Assembly (NCBI RefSeq): GCF_018336915.1
Contig: NZ_CP064923.1
Coordinates: 3,380,371 to 3,404,370, forward strand
Direction: 5' to 3'
Length of the DNA: 24,000 bases
Source: Acaryochloris marina S15
GTDB lineage: Bacteria > Cyanobacteriota > Cyanobacteriia > Thermosynechococcales > Thermosynechococcaceae
The notes beneath the pieces are model-generated. The model saw nothing but the letters and a program-made list of their open reading frames with translations. It had not been told where the DNA came from and did no database searches. Position numbers and translations under genes: made by a program. Of the stretch, positions 4,309 through 23,544 are shown one piece after another; the first letter of the stretch is position 1, and each line of letters opens with the position of its first letter.

Positions 4309-4830
4309 TTATTTCGCTTGAGAGTTTTCTGGCCCGTGATGTCGGCGGCCATGTCGGCGGCCCCAACGGCCTCTCCTTTGCTTCTTTAGCTCTGCCATTT
4401 TAGTTCGTTGCTCAGGAGTGAGGACTTGTCGAATCTTTAGTTTAGTTTCAAATCGGGCCTCACCCATGTCACGGCGCAAATCTTGTAAAATTCGATGTTG
4501 CGCTCTCAATTCATCATCAGATGCATCGCTAGCCATCAAGGCTTGCATTTTGTCTTTAGCCGCTCGCAAAGCTTCTCGTTTTGCTTGCTTATCCTGTTTA
4601 TTCTGCTCCCGAATTTGATCGATTTCTGAGACTTGATCCGGGCTAAGATTCAGTTGCTGGCGGAACTGCTCTCGTCGACGTTTTCTAAATTCTTCCTTAT
4701 TCGGTTTTTCAGTCGTTTCTTGTGCAATTGCGTAACTAGGAAACAAAGATTCGGTCGCAACAGTCAAACCATTACCTATTGGGAGTAATAGCGGTAGGGC
4801 AGCCAGTAAATAAACAGCACGGAATTTCAT
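4309..4830 (-). CDS. Spy/CpxP-family (LTXXQ motif) periplasmic protein with an Arg/His-rich C-terminal tail
   Basis: I place the start at the internal ATG at 4830, which gives a signal peptide (MKFRAVYLLAALPLLLPIGNG). The 50 residues upstream in the ORF track look non-coding. Two LTXXQ-type motifs are present (LNLSPDQ, VLTPEQ) in a charged helical body. The tail reads QRRGRWGRRHGRRHHGPE. Confidence 0.75.
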   Translation of the reverse strand: MKFRAVYLLAALPLLLPIGNGLTVATESLFPSYAIAQETTEKPNKEEFRKRRREQFRQQLNLSPDQVSEIDQIREQNKQDKQAKREALRAAKDKMQALMASDASDDELRAQHRILQDLRRDMGEARFETKLKIRQVLTPEQRTKMAELKKQRRGRWGRRHGRRHHGPENSQAK

Positions 4831-5684
4831 ACTAAAAAACCTCTTGTTTGGAGATGTTGGGTGATGTATGTGCATAAGTGCTCCCAACGCTCTAATCATA
4901 AGAAAAGCACTACTATGACCGAAAGGATCACATTTCCCAAATTGGTATGGATCTAAAGAACCGGATTGGAGTAGTACCAAAGTTCTAGATCTCAGGACAA
5001 AAAACGAAGATGGATAAACTTCACTTTAGTCCGATTCAGACAATTATGAGTTCCAGGTGTACCTAACAAAGACTTTGACATAAGCATTCTTTTGGTGATT
5101 AAAAACTATTTTCAGGCATAGTTTCAACACTCTTGATATATTTTCACTAAAAAATCATTTCTCTCCAAGATTGTTTATTCACCTCATTCAAACCTTGATA
5201 TCATTCAATTCCTAAAAACAAGGCATACAACTCTTGAATTAATTAAATCCTAAAAGAATACCCCATCCTCAATAAATATGCTGCCTACAAGATTCACGAA
5301 ATATCTAATAATTTATTCATAGTCTGATTTAAGAATAGGGACAATAGTCTTAACGGAAGAATTAAATCTAGAGATCTTGCAGATCAAACTTACTAGCATA
5401 TAGCTCAATACCTCTCTGAGATTAAACTATGACGATAGATCCAGAACTAAAAACTCAGTAAGATCACGCTGACAAGCAGAAAGTATCACGTTGTTCATGT
5501 GATCCAAATCGGATGATTCATTGGCCTTTACCGATAAGTTAGGAAAAGAGAGATAAACAGATTAGAAGCAAGTTCATTGCTCTTCTATTAATAAGAAATA
5601 GAGACTCTAGCATCACTTCATCTAATATATCTCTGACAAATCAGTCAACGTTCTTATTCTATTTTTCTGTTGGAAGAATCTATC

Positions 5685-9770: not shown

Positions 9771-11777
9771 ATGACAGCTTTTGACCTCCATGCTCCATTT
9801 GTCCCTAAAGGTGATCAACCCCAAGCCATTGAGAAACTGACCGCTCTCCTTCAATCTGGCCATTCTAGGCAAACTTTGCTGGGCGCTACGGGTACGGGTA
9901 AGACCTTCACGATGGCTAAGGTGATTGAAGAGATTGGTAAACCCACGCTAATCCTGGCCCATAACAAAACGCTAGCTGCGCAGCTCTGTAACGAAATCCG
10001 TTCCTTTTTTCCCAACAATGCAGTTGAGTATTTCATCAGCTATTACGACTATTACCAGCCTGAAGCCTATATTCCGGTCACAGATACCTTTATTGAAAAG
10101 ACAGCTGCCATCAATGAAGAAATTGATATGCTGCGGCATTCCGCGACACGATCGCTATTTGAACGTCAGGATGTCATTGTGGTGGCATCAATCAGCTGTA
10201 TTTACGGTTTGGGTATCCCTGCTGAGTATCTCAAGGCCTCAATCCCCCTCAAAGTTGGAGCTGAAGTTGATCAGCGGCAATTGCTGAGAAGTCTGGCAGC
10301 CGTGCAATATACCCGCAATGATGTGGACTTAGGGCGGGGGCGATTTCGAGTCAAAGGAGATGTTCTGGAGATTGGTCCAGCCTATGAAGACCGGATTATT
10401 CGGGTGGAGTTTTTTGGGGATGAGATCGATGCCATTCGCTATGTCGATCCCGTTACTGGAGCAACATTACAGAGTTTGGAAGGACTGAATGTTTATCCTG
10501 CCCGCCACTTTGTAACGCCAACAGAACGATTGGAAATGGCAGTTGAAGCCATTGATGAGGAGAGAAAAGCACAGGTCGAACATTTAGAAACGACCGGGAA
10601 ACTTTTGGAAGCTCAGCGCCTCAACCAACGGGCTCGCTACGATCTAGAGATGCTGAGAGAAGTTGGGTATTGCAATGGAGTAGAAAACTATTCTCGTCAT
10701 CTGGCTGGACGGGAAGCAGGGGCTCCACCTGAGTGTTTGGTGGATTATTTTCCTCAGGATTGGTTGTTAATCGTAGATGAGTCTCATGTATCGGTCCCCC
10801 AAATTCGGGCCATGTATAACGGCGATCAGGCTCGCAAGAAAGTTCTGATTGATCATGGTTTTCGTCTACCCAGTGCGGCAGACAATCGCCCCCTTAAGTC
10901 CGAAGAATTTTGGCAAAAAGTTAACCAGTGTGTGTTTGTGTCCGCTACTCCAGGGCAGTGGGAAATAGAGTTATCAGAAAATCGGGTAGTGGAGCAAGTT
11001 ATTCGACCGACGGGGGTAATCGATCCAGAAATTTTTGTCCGTCCGACAACTGGCCAAGTGGATGATTTACTAGCTGAGATTCATGAGCGAGTCAGTCGCC
11101 AAGAACGGACTTTGATCACCACCTTAACCAAACGGATGGCAGAGGACCTGACGGAATACTTTGAAGAGCGAGGCGTGCGAGTCCGATATCTGCATTCGGA
11201 GATTAATGCCATTCAACGTATCGAAATTCTTCGGGATTTACGCCAGGGAGTATTTGATGTCTTAGTTGGGGTCAATTTATTGCGAGAGGGGTTGGATTTA
11301 CCTGAAGTTTCTCTTGTAGCCATCTTAGATGCTGATAAAGAAGGGTTCCTGAGAGCTGAGCGTTCTCTGATTCAAACCATTGGTCGAGCCGCTCGCCATG
11401 TCCGAGGTCAAGCCATTCTCTATGCTGACAATCTGACGAATAGCATGGAAAGGGCTATTTCCGAAACTGAGCGGCGTCGGACCATTCAGCTTGCCTATAA
11501 TGAAAAGCATGGCATCACTCCACAACCGGTCAAAAAAGGATCTGATAATGCGATTTTGGCCTTTTTGGAGGTCTCCCGCCGCCTCAATACCCAAGAACTT
11601 GAGGATGCCTATGAACAGGCAGATGATCTACCCTTGGAGAGTGTGCCAGAGTTGATTACCCAATTGGAGGCAAAGATGAAGGAATCAGCTAAAAATCTGG
11701 AGTTCGAAGAAGCTGCAAAGTATCGAGATCGCATCAAGAACCTGAGATCTAAACTCTTAGGTCAAAAGTCTCCTTGA
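9771..11777 (+). CDS. uvrB: Excinuclease ABC subunit B
   Basis: The sequence is canonical UvrB along its full length. It has Walker [20 protein letters not shown], helicase motifs DESH and [15 protein letters not shown], and the C-terminal UVR motif ([11 protein letters not shown]). Confidence 0.97.
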
Positions 11778-12054
11778 TCCCCTTGCCCTTTCTTTGGGCA
11801 ATATCATCTTAGGTCTGCTTTAAGTCCATCCTTTTTTATGAGGTCTCGATCTGCTAGGAACTCTGGCATTTCATGAAATAATACAAGCAGCCACTCTAGC
11901 TCAAGATTTTCATTCGATTTCTCCATACATCGCTTTTTAGTATCCTTTCTCGTCCTAATACCTGCAAATCTCACCCGAAGTTCTCCTTTATATCTTTTTA
12001 TCAGTATCGATATTGGCCAAACTTTCAAGCCGATCATGAACTAAGACGATAACT

Positions 12055-14224: not shown

Positions 14225-15817
14225 TTACTGGAAGCTTTCTGGGGATTCTGATGGAGGCGGTGTTGAGAAATCAGGCCGAGCAAAGGGGTCGAACGGAGAT
14301 GGCTCTGGGCTGGGAGCCAGGCTGTCAGGATAGGAGTCTATTGGCGCTTGAAGAGTAGGATCCGGGCCTAGGGAATCAGGACTAAGAGGGACGGAGTCCT
14401 GAAGGGTGGGATCTGGCCCAATATCACCCTGATCAAACTGAGGATCAACCGTTGGTTCTTCTAAAGTTGAGGGAATGGGGGACTCAAGAGGTGTTTCAAT
14501 CGGAGTGGGCAAAGTTTCTAATTCCCTTCTGGTCGTCCCTGGCTTAGGTAGAAAATCTTCATTTTGAACCGGGGCAGCCTTTGCAGGCACTTGCGGGTTC
14601 GCGAACTGATTCTGGTAATGAAACCGTAGCAACAGGCCAAAGGCAATTCCCACAACACCTGAGAGCACTGAACACACGATTAATGCTCGGAAGGGAAATC
14701 TGGGAGGCGCGGAATAAGGTTGGAGACGAGTGGTTGACACAGTCTGGCTGGGCTCCTGGCTAGGGACTGTTGATTCTGAAAGTGTTGTCGGAAGATCCTC
14801 AGTCTCAGGGGCTATAGATAATTGCTCTGAAGGGTAAGGAATTGCTGGGCCTGAAGGTTCTGAGGCTGGAGGTTCTGAGGCTGGAGGAGGAGAGGTCTCT
14901 AGAAGAGAAGAGTCTATTGAGGATACAGGTTTCGCAGTTAGGGAAGGGGAAGCTGCGCCTATGTTACCCGATTCTGTTGGGAATGATACAGGGGGAGAAG
15001 GTGCCTTGGGTAGGAGTTTCATCCACTCTGAGATAGATTGAGGGCGATGCTGAGGTTGCATCGCCATTCCCCGTAGCAGGGCAACAATCGTTGCCTGGCT
15101 TAGGTCTGGGTGATGCATTTCCAAGCGAATATGTTGCCGCTGGGAAGCTGCTATCGGCATTTGCCCCATCACCAAGGTGTATAAGGTTGCGGCTAATCCA
15201 TAGATATCGGTTGTAACGGTTTGTTGACCTTGAGCGGATTCAGGTGCTGCATAGGCATGAACCAGAGGAGGAGGCAAACTAGGGTTGCTGGGTTGCCAAA
15301 CCCAATTCACAAGCATCGGATGATCAGTATGGGGAGGGTCAACAACATTTTTCGGTTGAACATCTCCATGCCGAAGCTGCTGCTGATGCGCTTGGTTCAA
15401 GCCGTTAGCAATTTGGGTGATTTGGGCAATCGCCTCCGCTTCTGATAGGGGCTGATTTTTTCCATTTATGGCCCAGGTCTGTTCTGGTAGCTTGTCCCTG
15501 ACCAGAAAGGGGAGAACCGAATCTACAAAAACGTCTCGGATGGGTTCTAGGGAAGGATGTTTTAAGCGCTGCCAAGCTTGAGCTTCTTGTATGAAAGCAT
15601 CGCGATGTAGGAGGATTTTTTTAGGGTGTTGACGGGACGGATTAAGGGTATTGATCAGAACAGGCTGCTGACTAGGTAAATGAGTGCCCTCATAGGTTAG
15701 CTGCAAGCCCTGATGCCTGACCAGTTGCTCTAAACGATACGTTCCTTTTTGTAAAAGTGTTCCGAGGGGAAGCAAAACCATTGTTGGCAGAGGGGGGCGC
15801 ATGGTAGCTAACGGCAA
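14225..15817 (-). CDS. Membrane-anchored Hanks-type Ser/Thr kinase homologue with degenerate catalytic motifs (pseudokinase), Pro-rich C-terminal region
   Basis: Kinase-fold landmarks are retained: FIQEA...LKHP, HGDVQPKN, YAAPE, TDIYGLAATLYTLVMG, HRPQSISEW. One TM helix (ALIVCSVLSGVVGIAFGLLL) is followed by a Pro/Ser/Glu-rich tail with short repeats. The start is uncertain: TTG at 15817, ATG at 15802 or ATG at 15781. Confidence 0.75.
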   Translation of the reverse strand: MPLATMRPPLPTMVLLPLGTLLQKGTYRLEQLVRHQGLQLTYEGTHLPSQQPVLINTLNPSRQHPKKILLHRDAFIQEAQAWQRLKHPSLEPIRDVFVDSVLPFLVRDKLPEQTWAINGKNQPLSEAEAIAQITQIANGLNQAHQQQLRHGDVQPKNVVDPPHTDHPMLVNWVWQPSNPSLPPPLVHAYAAPESAQGQQTVTTDIYGLAATLYTLVMGQMPIAASQRQHIRLEMHHPDLSQATIVALLRGMAMQPQHRPQSISEWMKLLPKAPSPPVSFPTESGNIGAASPSLTAKPVSSIDSSLLETSPPPASEPPASEPSGPAIPYPSEQLSIAPETEDLPTTLSESTVPSQEPSQTVSTTRLQPYSAPPRFPFRALIVCSVLSGVVGIAFGLLLRFHYQNQFANPQVPAKAAPVQNEDFLPKPGTTRRELETLPTPIETPLESPIPSTLEEPTVDPQFDQGDIGPDPTLQDSVPLSPDSLGPDPTLQAPIDSYPDSLAPSPEPSPFDPFARPDFSTPPPSESPESFQ

Positions 15818-15999: not shown

Positions 16000-16908
16000 T
16001 TAGATGATGCCTAATTTCTCTAGTATGGGTCGTGTGGAGACCACATGCTTTTCTAGCCCAAGTTTCTGCGGTTCAATCCCTAAAGCCAAACCGACTAACT
16101 GAGGTAAATGCAAAACAGGCAAGCCTAGCTTGGTATTAATGGATTTTTCAACTTCAGGTTGACGAGAATCTAAATTCAGATGACAGAGGGGACAAGGGGT
16201 CACCAAGCAGTCAGCTCCAGCTGCAATTGCGTCCTGAATTCTACCTCCCGCCATGGCAAAGGACTGGGGGGTGGCATAGCTAGCGAGGGGCCAACCACAA
16301 CATTGGGTGCGACCCGAGTAGTAGATTGGCGTAGCATCGAGGGCCAGAAACACATTTTCCATGGAAGAAGGGTGAATTGGATCGTCGAAGGGGAGACTCT
16401 GTTGGGCTCTGAGAAGATAGCAACCATAAAAAGCCGCACACTTTAATCCGCTGAGTTTACGCTTGACTTGAAGGGAAAGGGCTTCTAAGCCATAATCTCC
16501 GACCAAAGCCCACAGGAGATGCTTGACTTCAGTACTGCCTTGATAGGGAGAACAATGTTGTTCGGACAACAAGCTATTGATCTGATCAAAATACTCAGGG
16601 TTACTCTCTTTGGCGTCTTTCAATCGCTCATCGACATGACCAATCACTCCTTGGCAGGTACTGCAATGGGTGAGGAGGGGTAAATTGAGCTGTTCGGCTA
16701 GGGCAATATTGCGGGCATTAACGGTATCTTCGAGTAATTGCGAATCTTCTTTAAAGGTGCCAGACCCACAACAGGCCGCTTTCTTCAATTCAATGAGTTT
16801 AATCCCTAAGGCCTGGGCAATTTCCTGAGTTGACATGTATAGTTCTCGACAAGCGCCTTGAGCGACACATCCTGGGAAGTATGCATATTGGAGTGTTGGG
16901 ACCGACAT
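16000..16908 (-). CDS. HdrB-like CCG-domain iron-sulfur protein (heterodisulfide reductase subunit B / SdhE-type succinate dehydrogenase subunit family)
   Basis: Two Cys-rich CCG-type modules are present: YFPGCVA...CCGSG...C..C and FYGCYLLR...CCGWP...PCPLCH. Confidence 0.8.
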   Translation of the reverse strand: MSVPTLQYAYFPGCVAQGACRELYMSTQEIAQALGIKLIELKKAACCGSGTFKEDSQLLEDTVNARNIALAEQLNLPLLTHCSTCQGVIGHVDERLKDAKESNPEYFDQINSLLSEQHCSPYQGSTEVKHLLWALVGDYGLEALSLQVKRKLSGLKCAAFYGCYLLRAQQSLPFDDPIHPSSMENVFLALDATPIYYSGRTQCCGWPLASYATPQSFAMAGGRIQDAIAAGADCLVTPCPLCHLNLDSRQPEVEKSINTKLGLPVLHLPQLVGLALGIEPQKLGLEKHVVSTRPILEKLGII

Positions 16909-16940
16909 CTGATGAATTACTCGCTGTTACTGAGCCTTTG

Positions 16941-17026
16941 CTAGAGCAACGCTAGCATGTTGGTCTGAGAATTCGGCTTACCTGTGATTGAACATTACAA
17001 AACGGTGAAGTCTTTTTGCCTGAAGG
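16941..17026. repeat. Direct repeat copy A, flanking the 3' side of the LRR-Roc-COR gene
   Basis: The core 16969-17012 (GAATTCGGCTTACCTGTGATTGAACATTACAAAACGGTGAAGTC) matches 20647-20690 at 42 of 44 positions. An upstream 16-mer at 16941-16956 matches 20619-20634 at 14/16 with the same 28-nt offset to the core. A shared TGAAGG lies further downstream. Confidence 0.85.
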
Positions 17027-17083
17027 CACAGGTATTTCAATGTTTCAATTGGTCATATTGAAAGTTCGCAGAATTTCCATTAC

Positions 17084-20000
17084 TTACAAGCGTTTATCCT
17101 CCCGGAGCTTGTCCAGTTGGCCTCGGAAGTGTCCCTGCAATCCTTCGATCGATTCATATTCCTTGTAAAAGTGGCTTAAATTACTAAGCTTATCTTTGAA
17201 GTCACGCAGAGAAATAAGATCATCAACATTGACATCACTGGTTGAAACCGTGGTCTTCCGGAAGTAGGTATAGATCAGCGGTTTCTTAGTCTTCTTGAAG
17301 GTTTTGTATGCAACGTCAAATTCTTCCTCTGTGTATTTACCTGTTTTAGTCTTGAACAAGCTGACGAAAATGTCGCAGTGTCGAATTTTTTGGTTATATT
17401 CATTCTGGAGTCGGGTTGTCGACATGGCATCAAGGAAGTTTTCCCAGCGGATAACTTCTAAGTAGATGCCTTGTTTGCGTAGACGGTCATTCTGCTGGCG
17501 AAAATATAGATCGAAAGCGTCGCGATCTTCGCGAAGCTCAGCTGAGGACGCTAGGAAGATCCGAATCGTCTTTTCCTTCACAGTATCCGCCGACTTAGAT
17601 TGATTTGATTCTTCAGGTGTTTCTATCTCACTATTGTCTTGAGGTAGCTCTTGTTTTGCTCTCGCCAACCATTGTTCTAGATTCATGCCATCCAGAAGTT
17701 CTAGCACGCTGACATCATGGTAGTCAGGTGGATTGGGGCACTCAATGGATGGTTTGCCTCTACTTTTCCGTTCAATTAATTTTTTCTGCTCGAACATTGC
17801 TGGTTCTGTTAGGTTCATGCAGGTTTCACAGATGCAAGGCACCCATTTACTGACTTTGTCTTTGAGTCCTTGGAAGCTGTCGTTTAGTGCATCAAGTTCA
17901 CTGGCAATAGTGCTGAGCAGCGATTTTTTTTCTGGACCACGGCTGCGGAGAATAATTTCATTACCTTTTTCGGCTGTCACCACTAGCATCTTTGTTTCAC
18001 CATGCTCGAATAAGGCACCCTGCAACCAACATAGATTCGGCTGCTTTACAAAACGGTGCACTCGAACGATCAGTCGGCTTACCAGGCCCCGAGGTAGAAA
18101 CTCGTAGCGGTAGGTCAACATCAGATCGCCACTCCTGGCCCAATTGTCTAGCTCTGAAGGCTTTGAAGGTGACAAGTGTTGTGGAACCAGCCATGTCTCT
18201 TTGTTCATATCCGGCAGCCGATAACATAGCTCGAAACGGACCATGAGGGCACGCAACTCTATTTCCTTATCCGCGTAGCCTTTTTTGGACCACAGACGAT
18301 CGCAATCATCCAGGGTAAAGCGACCTTGCTGGGATTTGACATTTTCGTCGTCAAGGATACGAAATACTGCATCTGTCATCCACTGGTTCTGTAAAAATAT
18401 AGTCCGTCGGAGTTCCCGTGGTTCCTGAAAGTGTAGGAACACTCCCAGGTCATGCAGGTACTGGCTTAGCTTTAGGGCCTTATCGAGATCTGCTTCAAGA
18501 TGACCTGCATAGACTGTGAAGTAGTTATCCAGTGAGATATAGGGCTGGGTCTTTGCCAATTCCTTCAATTCATCGCGAATGGCAACCCATTTAGCTGGTA
18601 CATCTTCACCAATATGTGGCAATTTCTGAATGTAGTATTCTACCGCTTGGCGCAGTTTATCCGCCGCACATGGATGTTCCAGATTGCCCCGATGGAACTC
18701 CTCTACGTTGGGAAAGCGCCCTCTGATGCCCACCTCGTCGATCTGTTTACTGCGTCCGCCTTTCTCATTTTGAAAAATTAGTAGGGGACTAGCTGCGCTA
18801 AGGGTTTCAACTACCTCCAGCCAGAACTTAAAACCTTCGTCATAGACTGATTTGTGATCACTGCGGGTGTCATCGACCAATACATACAAGGAACGCTTTG
18901 TGAGAAAGAACTGATGGGTCGCATGATAAATCTGCTGACCGCCAAAGTCCCAGGCATTAAGTCGAAACTTGCGTCCATTAGACATTGAGAACTCATGACG
19001 GTGGATATCGATGCCACGGGTTGTTTCGTCTTCGTTAGGCAGTCCTAATTCGGGCAGAAACATACGACGCAGAATGCTAGTTTTTCCAGCCCCACCCTCG
19101 CCAACAATTAGTAGTTTGGCTTCAAACAGCCGATCTACCCCCTGCGCTTCAACCTCATGAAAGTAATTGAGTACTGCCTCCGGCCCCTGCTTTACGATTT
19201 CCGGCGAGGGATGTGTTAGCGGACAATCTTCGACATAGATACCTACTCCCCGCCATGTTGCTTGGGACCAATGGATCGGTCGTTTGGCTAAGACCCACGA
19301 TTTTAAAGGTGATAGATCTACCACGTTTGTCTCAGCAATGTTCAGTGTCACGAGTGGAAGCTGTGCTAATGGAGCAACCGTCGTTATCTGTTTATTTGAA
19401 TTTAGATGTAGATCGTTGAGAGCTGTTTGGTGTTGACCAATGGCAATGACAACTGCATCACCCACATTGTTGTTACTCAGATTGAGTGACGAGAGCTGTT
19501 GGAGGTTCTCTGCGATGGCCCGCGCCCCGTCATCACCCACTTTGTTGTTTCTCAGATTGAGTGACGAGAGCTGTTGAAGGTTCTCTGCGATGGCCCGCGC
19601 CCCGTCATCACCCACATTGTTGTTTCTCAGATTGAGTGACGAGAGCTGTTGGAGGTTCTCTGCAATGGCCCGCGCCCCGTCATCACCCACTTTGTTGCCA
19701 CTCAGATCAAGGGACGAGAGCTGTTGGAGGTTCTCTACGATGGCCCGCGCCCCATCATCGCCCACTTCGTTGAAACTCAGATTGAGTGACGAGAGCTGTT
19801 GGAGGTTCTCTGCAATGGCCCGCGCCCCGTCATCACCCACATTGTTGTTACTCAGATTGAGTGACGAGAGCTGTTGGAGGTTCTCTGCGATGGCCCGCGC
19901 CCCATCATCGCCCACTTCGTTGAAACTCAGATTGAGTGACGAGAGCTGTTGGAGGTTCTCTGCAATGGCCCGCGCCCCGTCATCACCCACTTCGTTGTCA

Positions 20001-20515
20001 CTCAGATCAAGTGACGAGAGCTGTTGGAGGTTCTCTGCGATGGCCCGCGCCCCATCATCGCCCACTTCGTTGAAACTCAGATTGAGTGACGAGAGCTGTT
20101 GGAGGTTCTCTGCGATGGCCCGCGCCCCGTCAGCGCCCACTTCGTTGTCACTCAGATCAAGTGACGAGAGCTGTTGGAGGTTCTCTGCGATGGCAGTGAT
20201 GTCTGTATCCTGCAGGCTGAGGGACCAAAAGGTGAGAGTTTGCAACCGATTGAGTCGCAATAGTTCAAGGGGGAGACTAGATAACTGGGTGGTAAGTTGG
20301 AATACAACGCGCCCCTGAAACTCCTTTGGCCAATTGTCCATTGATGGTGAAAGGCTAACTTCTGGTCCAAAGAGGGCTAGGTCAGTCCGATGTTCATTGC
20401 TGAGCCGCATTAGTAGATCGGGCAATTCATCTGGATTTATGCGCTGCAGCCCAGTTTCTCCAGTCATATTAGGTACTCCCAGCTTGTCCATCGGCTTTTT
20501 TTGGGTATTGCCCAC
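17084..20515 (-). CDS. ROCO-type multidomain protein: LRR (10 near-identical 25-aa repeats) - Roc GTPase - COR - Cys cluster - C-terminal TIR-like/DUF4062-like domain
   Basis: The ORF is 1143 aa. The LRR unit is LQQLSSLxLSxNxVGDDGARAIAEN. Roc motifs include P-loop LLIVGEGGAGKTS and switch II WDFGGQ. COR landmarks are VPAKWVAIRDELKE, YISLDNYF, LHDLGVFLHFQ and WLVPQHLSPSKP. The C-terminal 160 aa carry IRIFLASSAELREDRD...CDIFVSLFKTKTGKYTEEEFDVAY...KPLIYTYF. The annotated start is GTG at 20515. The ATG at 20467 (GGAG 8 nt upstream) is an alternative. Confidence 0.9.
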   Translation of the reverse strand: MGNTQKKPMDKLGVPNMTGETGLQRINPDELPDLLMRLSNEHRTDLALFGPEVSLSPSMDNWPKEFQGRVVFQLTTQLSSLPLELLRLNRLQTLTFWSLSLQDTDITAIAENLQQLSSLDLSDNEVGADGARAIAENLQQLSSLNLSFNEVGDDGARAIAENLQQLSSLDLSDNEVGDDGARAIAENLQQLSSLNLSFNEVGDDGARAIAENLQQLSSLNLSNNNVGDDGARAIAENLQQLSSLNLSFNEVGDDGARAIVENLQQLSSLDLSGNKVGDDGARAIAENLQQLSSLNLRNNNVGDDGARAIAENLQQLSSLNLRNNKVGDDGARAIAENLQQLSSLNLSNNNVGDAVVIAIGQHQTALNDLHLNSNKQITTVAPLAQLPLVTLNIAETNVVDLSPLKSWVLAKRPIHWSQATWRGVGIYVEDCPLTHPSPEIVKQGPEAVLNYFHEVEAQGVDRLFEAKLLIVGEGGAGKTSILRRMFLPELGLPNEDETTRGIDIHRHEFSMSNGRKFRLNAWDFGGQQIYHATHQFFLTKRSLYVLVDDTRSDHKSVYDEGFKFWLEVVETLSAASPLLIFQNEKGGRSKQIDEVGIRGRFPNVEEFHRGNLEHPCAADKLRQAVEYYIQKLPHIGEDVPAKWVAIRDELKELAKTQPYISLDNYFTVYAGHLEADLDKALKLSQYLHDLGVFLHFQEPRELRRTIFLQNQWMTDAVFRILDDENVKSQQGRFTLDDCDRLWSKKGYADKEIELRALMVRFELCYRLPDMNKETWLVPQHLSPSKPSELDNWARSGDLMLTYRYEFLPRGLVSRLIVRVHRFVKQPNLCWLQGALFEHGETKMLVVTAEKGNEIILRSRGPEKKSLLSTIASELDALNDSFQGLKDKVSKWVPCICETCMNLTEPAMFEQKKLIERKSRGKPSIECPNPPDYHDVSVLELLDGMNLEQWLARAKQELPQDNSEIETPEESNQSKSADTVKEKTIRIFLASSAELREDRDAFDLYFRQQNDRLRKQGIYLEVIRWENFLDAMSTTRLQNEYNQKIRHCDIFVSLFKTKTGKYTEEEFDVAYKTFKKTKKPLIYTYFRKTTVSTSDVNVDDLISLRDFKDKLSNLSHFYKEYESIEGLQGHFRGQLDKLREDKRL
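17087..17569 (-). other. C-terminal putative effector domain (aa 983-1143), TIR-like / DUF4062-like flavodoxin-type fold
   Basis: The beta-alpha pattern runs IRIFLASS (strand), ELREDRDAFDLYF (helix), IYLEVIRWE (strand), CDIFVSLF (strand), GKYTEEEFDVAY (conserved-Glu helix), PLIYTYF (strand). This matches my recollection of the DUF4062 / TIR-like consensus (vFiSS..dL.eeR ... cDvfv.i.g.rYG...TE.Ey..A...kP.l.f). It has not been checked with an HMM. Confidence 0.5.
17846..18628 (-). other. COR (C-terminal of Roc) domain, aa ~630-890
   Basis: It follows the Roc domain directly. Typical COR strings are present: KWVAIRDELKE, YISLDNYF, LSQYLHDLGVFLHFQ, FLQNQWMTDAVFRILD, ELCYRL and WLVPQHL. Confidence 0.7.
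18641..19123 (-). other. Roc (Ras of complex proteins) GTPase domain, aa ~465-625
   Basis: G1 is GEGGAGKTS (nt 19076-19102). G3 is DFGGQ (nt 18935-18949). The G4 position reads NEKG (nt 18758-18769) instead of the canonical NKxD. Confidence 0.85.
19430..20203 (-). repeat. 75-bp (25-codon) in-frame tandem repeat array encoding 10 LRR units
   Basis: The period is 75 nt (for example, CCCAC at 19461 and 19536). The units are nearly identical in DNA sequence, with a few recurring subtype variants (SFNE, SDNE, S/RNNN/K). Confidence 0.9.
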
Positions 20516-20618
20516 CCTCTATTTCTCGATGTGTTTTATCCATTACCATCAATATTTCTTGACCTTCTCAATACAATATCTCAGCCGAATCAGTGACATT
20601 TACGCATTTATCTCTATG

Positions 20619-20726
20619 CCAGAGCAATGCTAGCCCTATGACACCAGAATTCGGGTTACCTGTGATTGAACATTACAAAACGGTGAAATCAGTGGTCCTG
20701 AGTCGGGAGACCTTTTATCTTGAAGG
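20619..20726. repeat. Direct repeat copy B, flanking the 5' side of the LRR-Roc-COR gene
   Basis: See copy A. The core 20647-20690 is 42/44 identical to 16969-17012. Copy B carries a 20-nt insertion (20691-20710) before the shared CTTTT..TGAAGG tail. It lies 28-135 nt upstream of the pip start codon. Confidence 0.85.
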
Positions 20727-20753
20727 ACAAGAGATAGCTGTTGGACCTCCAAA

Positions 20754-21704
20754 ATGCGCGAACTTTACCCAGTCATCACCCCTTATACAACGGGTAAACT
20801 CCAAGTTTCTGATCTGCATACCCTCCATTACGAAGAAGTGGGAAATCCCCAGGGGAAACCAGCTATATTTCTGCACGGGGGACCCGGGGGCGGCATTGAT
20901 CCGGTCTATCGACAGTATTTTGATCCACAGGAATGGCGGTTAGTGCTGTTTGACCAGCGGGGTTGCGGGCAAAGCACCCCCCATGCAGAGCTAAAAGAAA
21001 ACACCACCTGGGATTTAGTCAGGGATATCGAAACCCTGCGTCAGCATCTCGACATTGATCAGTGGGTAGTCTTTGGAGGGAGTTGGGGCAGTACTTTAGC
21101 CCTGGCCTACAGCCAGACCCATCCTGAATCCTGCAAGGGACTCATCTTGCGGGGGATATTTATGTTGCGTCATCAAGAACTGCAATGGTTCTACCAAGAA
21201 GGAGCCAGCAACATTTTCCCAGATGCCTGGGAAGCCTATCTCCAGCCCATTCCTCTGGAAGAGCGTCAGGATTTAATCAGTGCCTATTACCGCCGACTCA
21301 CAAGTAACGATCCAAACATTCAACTGGAAGCGGCCAAAGCCTGGTCCGTCTGGGAGGCCACAACGAGCAAACTGTTGCCCGATCCTGAATTGCAAGAAAA
21401 ATGTGGTGAAGACACCTTTGCCACGGCCTTTGCTCGGATTGAATGTCACTATTTCATGAACAAGGGCTTTTTAGACACAGAAGATCAGCTGATGCGGGGA
21501 TGCGATCGCATCCAGCATCTCCCCATCGTTATTGTTCAAGGCCGTTATGATGTCGTTTGCCCCGTCATTTCAGCCTGGGAACTCCATCAGCAACTTCCTC
21601 AATCAGAGCTGCAAATCATTGCCGATGCCGGCCATTCCATTACAGAACCTGGCATTCGCAATGCTTTGATCGAAGCAACCGACCGCTTTGCTCAAATTCC
21701 ATGA
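20754..21704 (+). CDS. pip: Proline iminopeptidase (prolyl aminopeptidase)
   Basis: Family signatures run through the full length: LYP.ITPY, HYEEVGNPQGKPAIFLHGGPGGG, LFDQRGCGQSTPHA, NTTWDLVRDIE, FGGSWGSTLALAY, LRGIF and WFYQEGAS.IFPDAWE. Confidence 0.95.
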   Translation: MRELYPVITPYTTGKLQVSDLHTLHYEEVGNPQGKPAIFLHGGPGGGIDPVYRQYFDPQEWRLVLFDQRGCGQSTPHAELKENTTWDLVRDIETLRQHLDIDQWVVFGGSWGSTLALAYSQTHPESCKGLILRGIFMLRHQELQWFYQEGASNIFPDAWEAYLQPIPLEERQDLISAYYRRLTSNDPNIQLEAAKAWSVWEATTSKLLPDPELQEKCGEDTFATAFARIECHYFMNKGFLDTEDQLMRGCDRIQHLPIVIVQGRYDVVCPVISAWELHQQLPQSELQIIADAGHSITEPGIRNALIEATDRFAQIP

Positions 21705-22290: not shown

Positions 22291-23544
22291 ATGACTAACC
22301 TAGAGCCTAAGCGCGTTGTAATTACAGGGCTGGGGGCCATCACTCCGTTAGGGAATACCCTCTCTGAATACTGGGATGGGTTGCTTGCGGGTCGCAGTGG
22401 AATTGGCCCCGTCACCCGGTTTGATGCAGCTAAGCATGCCTGCCAAATTGCCGGAGAAGTGAAAGGCTTCGATCCACAAGACTATATGGATCGTAAAGAC
22501 GCCAAACGCATGGACCGTTTTGCTCAATTTGCGGTGTCTGCCAGCAAACAAGCCCTAGCTGATGCTAACTTCACCATTGACGATACCAATGCAAACGATA
22601 TCGGTATCATCATCGGCACCGGTATTGGGGGTCTAAAAGTTCTAGAGGATCAGCAGGAAATTTATCTCACCAAAGGGCCGGATCGCTGCAGCCCCTTTAT
22701 GATTCCGATGATGATTGCCAATATGGCGGCAGGCTTAACAGCCATTCATGTGGGTGCTAAAGGTCCTAACTCCTGTTCAGTGACGGCCTGTGCTGCCGGG
22801 TCTAACGCCATTGGTGATGCCTTTCGCTTTGTCCAGAGGGGCTATACCAAAGCGATGATTTGTGGTGGCACCGAAGCTGCAGTGACTCCCTTATCCATGG
22901 CTGGATTTGCGGCCTGTCGAGCCCTCTCCACCCGCAATGATGATCCCACAAAAGCCAGCCGCCCGTTTGATCGTGATCGGGATGGTTTTGTCCTGGGAGA
23001 AGGAGTTGGCATTCTCTTAATTGAAGAATTAGAGCATGCTCTAGCGCGAGGCGCCAAAATTTACGCCGAGCTGATTGGCTATGGGGTCACTTGCGATGCT
23101 CATCATATGACATCCCCCTCCCCTGGTGGCGTTGGCGCGGCCCGAGCCATTGAGTTATGCCTTAAAGACAGTAACTTGTCCCCTGACCAAATCAGCTATA
23201 TCAATGCCCATGGCACCAGCACGAACGCCAACGATACAACGGAAACAGCTGCAATTAAGCATGCAATCGGTGATAATGCTTACCGAGTAGCCATTAGTTC
23301 CACAAAATCGATGACGGGTCATTTACTGGGCGGGTCGGGTGGTATTGAAGCCGTAGCCACTGCCATGGCCATTGCCAATGATCAAGTCCCGCCGACAATT
23401 AACCTAGATAATCCTGACGAAGGATGCGATTTAGACTATATTCCCCATACCAGCCGTAAATTAACGGTTGATGTTGCTCTTTCCAATTCCTTTGGTTTTG
23501 GCGGTCACAATGTCACCCTCGCCTTCCGAAAATATGCCGATTGA
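22291..23544 (+). CDS. fabF: 3-oxoacyl-ACP synthase II (KAS II)
   Basis: MTNLEPKRVVITGLGAITPLGN, the active-site Cys in SVTACAAGSNAIG, and the His motifs (CDAHHMTSP, NAHGTSTNAND) and GFGGHN are all present. ATG at 22291 is preferred over GTG at 22282. Confidence 0.95.
   Translation: MTNLEPKRVVITGLGAITPLGNTLSEYWDGLLAGRSGIGPVTRFDAAKHACQIAGEVKGFDPQDYMDRKDAKRMDRFAQFAVSASKQALADANFTIDDTNANDIGIIIGTGIGGLKVLEDQQEIYLTKGPDRCSPFMIPMMIANMAAGLTAIHVGAKGPNSCSVTACAAGSNAIGDAFRFVQRGYTKAMICGGTEAAVTPLSMAGFAACRALSTRNDDPTKASRPFDRDRDGFVLGEGVGILLIEELEHALARGAKIYAELIGYGVTCDAHHMTSPSPGGVGAARAIELCLKDSNLSPDQISYINAHGTSTNANDTTETAAIKHAIGDNAYRVAISSTKSMTGHLLGGSGGIEAVATAMAIANDQVPPTINLDNPDEGCDLDYIPHTSRKLTVDVALSNSFGFGGHNVTLAFRKYAD

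Follow-up and report, generated by a model that had tools for sequence, protein, structure and literature searches.

A ROCO gene flanked by a duplicated upstream module adjoins a diverged tract in Acaryochloris marina S15 and was probably gained by allelic replacement

Results

Gene content of the CCG-pip junction

This study analyzed a 24,000-nucleotide stretch of the cyanobacterium Acaryochloris marina S15 (assembly GCF_018336915.1, contig NZ_CP064923.1, positions 3,380,371 to 3,404,370), hereafter the window, which lies on a contig of 5.88 Mb. Its subject is a gene for a ROCO protein, consisting of leucine-rich repeats (LRR), Roc, COR-A and COR-B, that was located between a CCG-domain gene and the prolyl aminopeptidase gene pip and was bracketed by two copies of a direct repeat (Table 1). 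The open reading frames (ORFs) of the window and a domain scan revealed that ROCO is the sole gene between the repeat copies and the sole ORF of the 3.6-kb insert; the CCG gene and pip start outside the copies and diverge from each other. The CCG protein had MFR_anch_SdhE and CoB_CoM_SS_B as its top NCBIfam matches, both under the equivalog cut-offs; its closest named orthologues were those of Acaryochloris, and orthologues within this genus were 87-97% identical. The identity of pip was given by TIGR01249 (443.7 bits, cut-off 259.75), and acpP and then fabF lie beyond it.

Table 1. Features at the CCG-pip junction of A. marina S15 (positions in the window)
Feature	Position	Strand	Remarks
CCG-domain gene (SdhE/HdrB-like Fe-S protein, 302 aa)	16000..16908	-	Pfam CCG PF02754, E 1e-27; 5' two-thirds within the putatively imported tract
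Divergent recombination tract	16261..16928	.	about 10% divergence from 10 population mates; left, visible portion of the putatively imported segment
Repeat copy A, upstream module of the CCG gene	16940..17012	+	block 16940-16956, spacer 16957-16968, core 16969-17012
Insert-specific non-coding DNA 3' of ROCO (A_right)	17013..17083	.	not in any empty site
ROCO gene, LRR-Roc-COR-A-COR-B with a C-terminal domain of about 150 aa	17084..20467	-	Pfam domains above cut-offs
75-bp tandem array inside ROCO, 25-aa LRR units	19456..20194	.	9.9 copies, 91% matches
Insert-specific non-coding DNA upstream of ROCO	20468..20617	.	not in empty sites; no meaningful match in other loci
Repeat copy B, mosaic	20618..20690	+	block and spacer 20618-20645 diverged, ROCO-linked; core 20646-20690 native-type
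Native pip 5' region (B_right)	20691..20753	+	identical to empty-site alleles
pip, prolyl aminopeptidase	20754..21704	+	99.6% DNA identity to population mates

Extent and structure of the direct repeat

The two copies share a 44-nt core (copy B: 20647-20690) in direct orientation, 3678 bp apart and identical at 42 of 44 positions. The mismatches, at 16977/20655 (C/G) and 17010/20688 (G/A), enclose a perfect match of 32 nt (16978-17009 = 20656-20687). When a 41-nt core pattern was searched with up to three mismatches, exactly two places in the window were found, and 100 shuffles gave 0 matches. The block GC(T/C)AGAGCAA(C/T)GCTAGC lies 28 nt ahead of each core (20618-20634 in copy B; 15/17 identical), and the likeness of the two left flanks exceeded chance, the same score being reached by 2 of 2000 shuffles. 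The 12-nt spacer between block and core was unrelated in the two copies (3/12, the random level). The full repeat therefore comprises 73 nt and has a sharp right edge at 17012/20690. To the right of the core, local alignment scored 9.0 against a shuffle mean of 9.1 (980/2000 shuffles reached it), and the likeness to the left of the 17-nt block was likewise not significant (917/2000 shuffles). A blastn comparison of A_right with all fetched loci returned no meaningful match, and its likeness to B_right was at the chance level.

These results agree in part with a preliminary description of the locus, made from the sequence alone. The coordinates, orientation, spacing and mismatches of the core, the conserved block at a constant 28-nt offset, and the position of the LRR-Roc-COR gene as the only gene between the copies, with the HdrB-like and pip starts outside, were all recovered. 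The repeat had been described as 85-110 bp long, with a decaying CTTTT..TGAAGG match and a 20-nt insertion to the right of the core; that match is at the chance level, and the length is reduced to 73 nt. The reported lack of mobile-element features was confirmed: no integrase, recombinase or transposase domain was found in any ORF of the 24-kb window, and the repeat search gave no terminal inverted repeats at the insert ends, where pairs occurred at the chance level only. A transposon, insertion sequence or miniature inverted-repeat transposable element (MITE) was rejected as the identity of the insert in view of these two absences, the 73-nt duplication (versus 2-14 bp) and the single copy of the core in reference genomes.

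Comparison with relatives revealed that copy B is a mosaic. Its core was identical at 35 of 35 positions to that of locus L001, from the same population as the window, and to that of A. marina MBIC11017, whereas its block side matched every lineage at only 29-34 of 49 positions, a divergence as deep as that of the deepest within-genus comparisons. This ROCO-linked half was about equidistant from all lineages, so no source lineage was singled out. The core of copy A was identical to the native type at 34 of 35 positions.

The repeat as the upstream module of the CCG gene

The same arrangement (GCTAGWGCAACGCTARC, exactly 29 nt, GRTTGAACATTA) was present upstream of the CCG gene in nine further lineages or strains, approximately 30-110 nt before the start codon, and the strict 29-nt spacing from GCTARC to GRTTGAAC was maintained there in all Acaryochloris lineages examined. 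The module was also kept upstream of the CCG gene in two loci in which pip is not adjacent (L007 and L013), which identifies the repeat as the conserved region ahead of this gene. On the basis of this conservation, we interpret the 73-nt repeats as two copies of a putative cis-module of the CCG gene, composed of the 17-nt palindromic block, exactly 29 nt, and GATTGAACATTA. Copy B has the same orientation relative to the ROCO start as the module has to the CCG gene, at a distance of 150 nt from the ROCO ATG compared with 31 nt for the CCG gene, and it is also the distal upstream region of pip. Copy B probably supplies regulatory signals for ROCO and may drive or regulate its expression.

The module was rare outside this site. 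A 22-nt core pattern occurred at two sites in 185,579 species-representative genomes, namely the chromosome of A. marina MBIC11017 and an Acaryochloris metagenome-assembled genome (MAG; IP29b), and both sites were orthologous. The bipartite motif was found on only two metagenome contigs, both at the orthologous site; the core was not found in viral contigs, and neither module nor core was found on plasmids (PLSDB).

The nature of the module was considered further. An Rfam scan of 16000-21500 (E<=5) returned only a spurious match to a eukaryotic long non-coding RNA. Neither repeat copy contained a sigma-70 consensus promoter, terminator-like matches occurred at the chance frequency, and an RNAalifold consensus of nine module copies exhibited almost no covariation and did not recover the local hairpin. 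A structured cis-regulatory RNA (riboswitch or leader) was therefore not supported as the identity of the repeat, given that no relevant Rfam match and no covariation-supported structure were obtained. By eye, the core fitted none of the NtcA, CRP, LexA and HLR1 consensus sites. The core holds an imperfect inverted repeat, and the nearly invariant 17-nt block (GCTAGCGTTGCWCTAGC in the CCG sense) forms a 5-bp inverted repeat around 7 nt. Two changes were seen in this stem, one in the ROCO copy and one in L008; both are single and compatible with G-U pairing only in the CCG/ROCO sense. The variants are too few to decide, and they hint at either a 5'-untranslated-region hairpin or a dimeric protein site.

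Two relatives exhibited rearrangements next to the module. In Acaryochloris sp. IP29b_bin.137 (L007/L016, 5560-6000), the module was kept and pip was replaced by a 78-aa ORF, a ferritin gene and a ParB_N gene; in Acaryochloris sp. RU_4_1 (L013/L014, 5557-6000), the module was kept with a 444-bp spacer to acpP, and pip was not the neighbour. These arrangements mark the intergenic region to the right of the module as a recurrent rearrangement site in the genus. Sample SRR17348483 (L002/L028) carried three substitutions in the left core (GAATTCGACTCACC versus GAATTCGGGTTACC) and shared the C at core position 9 with copy A of the window; position 9 is thus polymorphic in the population.

Empty sites in relatives

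In loci L001-L003, whose pip protein is identical to that of the window, the CCG gene was directly divergent from pip across 164 bp, and the intergenic region was exactly the left flank of copy A, the core, and the right flank of copy B of the window. The population was sampled further by ten contigs from 10 samples with identical acpP (L021-L030), three of which are the contigs of L001-L003. Together with one similar contig not shown, 11 of 11 intact junctions from the population of the window were empty. Empty sites were also found in MBIC11017, L005/L006, L008-L012, L017, L018, L019 and L020, with CCG identities of approximately 80-97%, and all six of the more distant lineages that keep pip beside the CCG gene were empty. 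The empty sites measured 163-168 bp in the population assemblies and the distant lineages.

Because empty sites are abundant and the homologues of ROCO are distant, the presence of ROCO is the derived, accessory state, and the comparison of loci identifies the gene as a predicted accessory insertion at the CCG-pip junction. The preliminary description had supposed a short divergent intergenic region as the ancestral state and had proposed a search for the empty site; the sites found are short divergent regions of this kind, with one copy of the core. The two outcomes that it had set against its own reading were not observed: rather than occupied relatives with both copies throughout, empty sites abound, and rather than a core dispersed throughout the genome, there is one copy each in MBIC11017 and the MAG.

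Evidence that the two-copy structure in the window is real came from an independent assembly. A short-read contig (L004) was 100% identical to the window across pip-fabF and began at core position 12, which is the start of the first 31-mer holding the copy-B-specific base at core position 42. In a de Bruijn graph with k=31, the value of Logan assemblies, a branch would arise at this point if both copies were present. The start of L004 at a 31-mer unique to copy B is therefore expected if that sample carries both copies, and it supports the structure observed in the window.

A diverged tract adjoins the insert

Although the kinase gene, pip and acpP-fabF of the window were 99.4-99.8% identical to those of L001-L003, the CCG gene was only approximately 93% identical. 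The differences on the CCG side were confined to 16261-16928 (approximately 66 in 670 bp) and ran straight into copy A, against a background of 1-5 differences per 250 bp (0.3-0.9% in the flanks), and no excess was observed to the right of copy B. The ten population mates shared the other allele of the tract, from each of which the window differed at 62-67 of 667 sites. In the tract, 60 of 69 variable sites were specific to the window, whereas outside it the four strains were approximately 0.5% apart in a star-like pattern. Among the tract single-nucleotide polymorphisms (SNPs), 56 of 65 were at third codon positions, with 54 synonymous and 9 non-synonymous codons, which indicates that the window carries a diverged CCG allele predicted to be functional.

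The alleles of the window, the L001 type and MBIC11017 were about equidistant in the tract (90.4/89.7/89.0%); the donor would therefore be an unsampled lineage of the A. marina clade. No donor lineage with an occupied locus was found, and no contig carried the exact CCG, ROCO (with either start codon) or kinase product of the window. The tract is contiguous, mainly synonymous, abuts the insert and ends in homologous sequence; the right end of the import is placed within the core. This abutment suggests that the imported unit runs from inside the CCG gene and is not bounded by the two repeats. The contiguity of the insert with a diverged CCG tract is new beyond the preliminary description. Within fabF, a separate segment (22750-23000) exhibited 7 differences per 250 bp versus each of L001-L003 over a background of 1-2, and it may be a second short recombination tract.

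The ROCO protein

The ROCO protein comprises 1127 aa from the ATG at 20467, as does the database copy (P0001); a GTG at 20515 would give 1143 aa. Its Pfam matches were LRR_6 (above the cut-off), Roc (73.2 bits, cut-off 27), COR-A (122.8, cut-off 35.3) and COR-B (97.5, cut-off 27), in that order. The closest solved structure was that of Chlorobium tepidum Roco (6hlu/8r4b; E 2e-78, residues 145-871), and the Roc-COR of LRRK2 was also homologous. No homologue exceeded 72% identity, and the nearest were scattered in marine gammaproteobacterial symbionts and other cyanobacteria. Acaryochloris plasmids (PLSDB) carried only paralogues of 35-38% aa identity, and viral contigs only relatives of 26-29%. 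The 91% identity of the LRR tandem array suggests that the sensor-like LRR region expanded recently or evolves in concert, and the array probably explains why short-read assemblies did not recover ROCO.

The C-terminal domain matched Pfam NPHP3 weakly, below the cut-off. Residues 982-1135 (approximately window 17087-17570) matched positions 3-164 of the 906-position PADLOC candidate model PDC-S60 (E 8e-13), a partial match. This domain could be an effector or partner domain. Roc-COR GTPases have been placed as rare parts of predicted conflict systems in cyanobacteria and verrucomicrobia, without experimental test (Kaur et al. 2020, PMC7159879). Taken with the architecture, the LRR array and the partial PDC-S60 match, this placement offers a hint of a defence role. 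A genomic study of 37 A. marina strains (PMC8949462) discusses neither this locus nor recombination.

Discussion

Origin of the insertion

These findings suggest that ROCO probably reached this strain by homologous allelic replacement from an unsampled donor diverged by approximately 10%, with the duplicated CCG module flanking the gene. The import would span the interior of the CCG gene (left crossover at approximately 16220-16260), copy A and ROCO, and would end in the core of copy B (right crossover at 20646-20690). The conserved core, which alone in this region remains identical across lineages, would have served as the right-hand homology arm; copy A would lie inside the imported DNA and still serve the CCG gene. 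The duplication would thus have existed in the donor before the transfer. For its first origin, we propose that ROCO entered the intergenic region with its own diverged module copy and recombined at the core, in a Campbell-type or "ends-in" event mediated by host recombination functions or by a trans-acting recombinase. Saturating divergence in the ROCO-linked half of copy B, beside a native core, argues for ROCO having arrived with its own module copy. A fresh duplication fits less well, since an in-situ duplication in a donor diverged by approximately 10% should not be saturated and since every outgroup is empty. A Campbell-type event at the core is our best guess for how the duplication first arose. 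With a perfect direct repeat of 32 nt, the insertion would be reversible, and recombination between the copies would regenerate the empty allele of the relatives. The preliminary description had proposed a Campbell-type or other duplication-generating insertion. The inserted accessory cassette and the junctions inside the core are in line with that proposal, whereas the tract of approximately 10% divergence indicates that the arrival in this strain was by allelic replacement.

Several points weigh against this explanation. The donor and ROCO-bearing relatives beyond the L004 sample were not found, and both copies in the donor are an assumption of the model. The population polarity rests on parsimony (1-2 occupied versus 11 empty, star-like) and not on a rooted tree. 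RecA-type recombination does not usually place a crossover in as little as 45 bp of identity, as is required on the right, although the long left arm may help. A deeply diverged module source predicts a diverged copy A core, yet this core is 34/35 native, so that either a later homogenisation or a donor from the A. marina clade itself has to be assumed. The function of the module rests on its conservation, with no sigma-70 consensus, Rfam family or covariation in its support. Finally, the GC content, GC at third codon positions (GC3), codon usage and tetranucleotides of ROCO fell inside the host range or at its margin. The compositional comparison suggested in the preliminary description thus gave no foreign signature for the accessory, horizontally acquired gene that it had envisaged, a status that the empty sites and the nearest homologue at 72% identity do support.

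The same evidence bears on other explanations. If a ROCO circle with a single copy of the segment had integrated directly into this strain by a Campbell-type event, with the CCG tract as an unrelated event, the empty site would consist of the outer flanks joined at the core with both junctions inside it, and the ROCO-linked half of copy B would look foreign beside a native core, as observed; small unrelated SNP clusters, such as that at 22750-23000, do occur elsewhere. Nevertheless, no more than 48 bp separate the end of the tract from the insert junction, and copy A also has non-native bases at both of its core SNPs. We estimate that a chance abutment within approximately 50 bp along the approximately 17 kb aligned would be only about 0.5% likely. 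In addition, the window contains no recombinase, and the core was not found in viral contigs or plasmids. Such an integration would leave the tract unexplained, and allelic replacement is therefore favoured; we regard direct integration in this strain as unlikely. The opposite polarity, in which ROCO and both repeats are ancestral and the empty alleles are losses by recombination at the 32-nt repeat or imports of an empty allele, appears improbable. Deletion between the direct repeats would yield exactly the observed empty allele, and the distances give no direction, since both tract alleles are equidistant from MBIC11017. However, 11 of 11 population junctions and the six distant pip-CCG lineages are empty; a single tract allele of normal population diversity is common to the empty strains, whereas the tract of the window is unique; and ROCO has no close homologue in any Acaryochloris. 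Moreover, repeat deletion would mostly leave C at core position 9 (32/44 crossover positions), and L001, L005 and MBIC11017 have G.

It is also doubtful that the locus is an old balanced presence/absence polymorphism whose linked divergence in the 5' part of the CCG gene built up within the species rather than by recent introgression. A linked tract that coalesces deep (approximately 10%) inside a population with approximately 0.5% divergence is what such a polymorphism would produce, and the LRR-STAND-like sensor architecture, the fast-evolving LRR array and the partial match to a candidate defence family are compatible with it. The divergence is nevertheless one-sided and step-like rather than decaying, and the haplotype is rare (the window and probably one other sample) and was not found among MBIC-type strains despite coalescing at roughly their depth; genealogically, this alternative is hard to tell from introgression with the present data. 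It is very improbable that the repeat has nothing to do with the arrival of ROCO, being a dispersed element (a regulatory box or MITE) or an artefact of assembly. This was an a priori possibility, to which the palindromic 17-nt block and the imperfect inverted repeat in the core lent some plausibility. The repeat is, however, single-copy in MBIC11017 and the IP29b MAG, absent from the other species representatives and matched in two metagenome contigs, both orthologous; the junctions correspond exactly to the empty sites; and the break in the independent short-read assembly falls precisely at the de Bruijn branch that two copies would create. A bolder scenario, which we consider a speculative and unlikely extension, is that ROCO and its own module copy form a recombinase-free single-gene cassette that homes via the 44-nt core to a single conserved divergent promoter, can be lost precisely by way of that repeat, and persists in A. 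marina as an immune sensor, an NLR-like LRR-GTPase, with a presence/absence polymorphism of long standing. If this were true, such a minimal cassette would be the prokaryotic counterpart of plant R-gene presence/absence alleles.

Comparison with known systems

Some integrative elements bring along a copy of their own target; islands in the 3' ends of tRNA and tmRNA genes, for example, are flanked by direct repeats of 15-50+ bp. The locus resembles Campbell-type elements of this kind in that the insert lies between direct repeats, their two outer halves joined at the core make up the empty site, the element-linked half of one repeat appears to be a diverged replacement of the host copy, and both neighbours keep an intact proximal region. 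In contrast to those elements, the insert has no integrase within it or nearby, occupies a promoter/5' region instead of an RNA gene, carries one gene only and arrived with adjacent host-gene DNA. Another parallel is the gain of accessory genes by flanking homologous recombination, where an occupied locus replaces the empty allele after transformation or DNA uptake of another kind, and in which a foreign gene lies in an elevated, mostly synonymous tract that ends in homology on both sides, without mobile-element genes and with exact empty alleles in near-identical strains. The locus differs from the classical form in its right arm, which is only the approximately 45-bp core of a duplicated regulatory module and not a long stretch of core genes.

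In classical homology-facilitated illegitimate recombination (HFIR), the second join forms at a microhomology of a few bp, whereas the corresponding join at this locus falls in a short repeat that is truly homologous. HFIR is reportedly a related process, one associated with the names of de Vries and Wackernagel (2002). The ROCO protein shares the LRR-Roc-COR architecture of CtRoco, the LRRK2 homologue of C. tepidum, but it is distant in sequence; its LRR region is longer and includes a near-identical 25-aa array, and its C-terminal domain of approximately 150 aa is distinct. Presence/absence polymorphism also occurs in plant NLR/R genes, for example RPM1 in Arabidopsis. As in those genes, a sensor-type LRR-NTPase gene is precisely present or absent here and divergence is raised beside the junction; unlike in plants, the gene belongs to a prokaryote, divergence rises in a step on one side only, and an immune role of ROCO is only a candidate function.

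The locus provides a well-resolved natural case in which a cyanobacterium apparently needed no mobile-element machinery to gain one large sensor-type gene and would need none to lose it; the exact empty alleles, both predicted recombination endpoints and the linked, putatively imported tract are all visible at one locus. It suggests that recombination can use a short, strongly conserved regulatory module as a homology arm and leave it duplicated before the incoming gene. The event is a clean but unsurprising gain of an accessory gene, of a known type, and it leaves the current view of gene transfer unchanged. ROCO adds a rare accessory, possibly immune-type, locus to A. marina, and the CCG-pip junction is a simple marker, testable by polymerase chain reaction, for the population genomics of this species.

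Additional variation near the locus

The Ser/Thr kinase gene adjoining the CCG gene varied among near-identical strains (window 14225-14500), with lengths of 519/520/525/530 aa (L003, L022, L029). Relative to L003, 21 differences were clustered at 14250-14500, which suggests C-terminal indel or repeat variation. In L022 (SRR12447962), the CCG gene (4795-5631) was called at only 278 aa, and an Exo_endo_phos gene (11271-11943) was split into two ORFs; together with the short CCG gene, this split may reflect a frameshift, a pseudogene or an assembly error.

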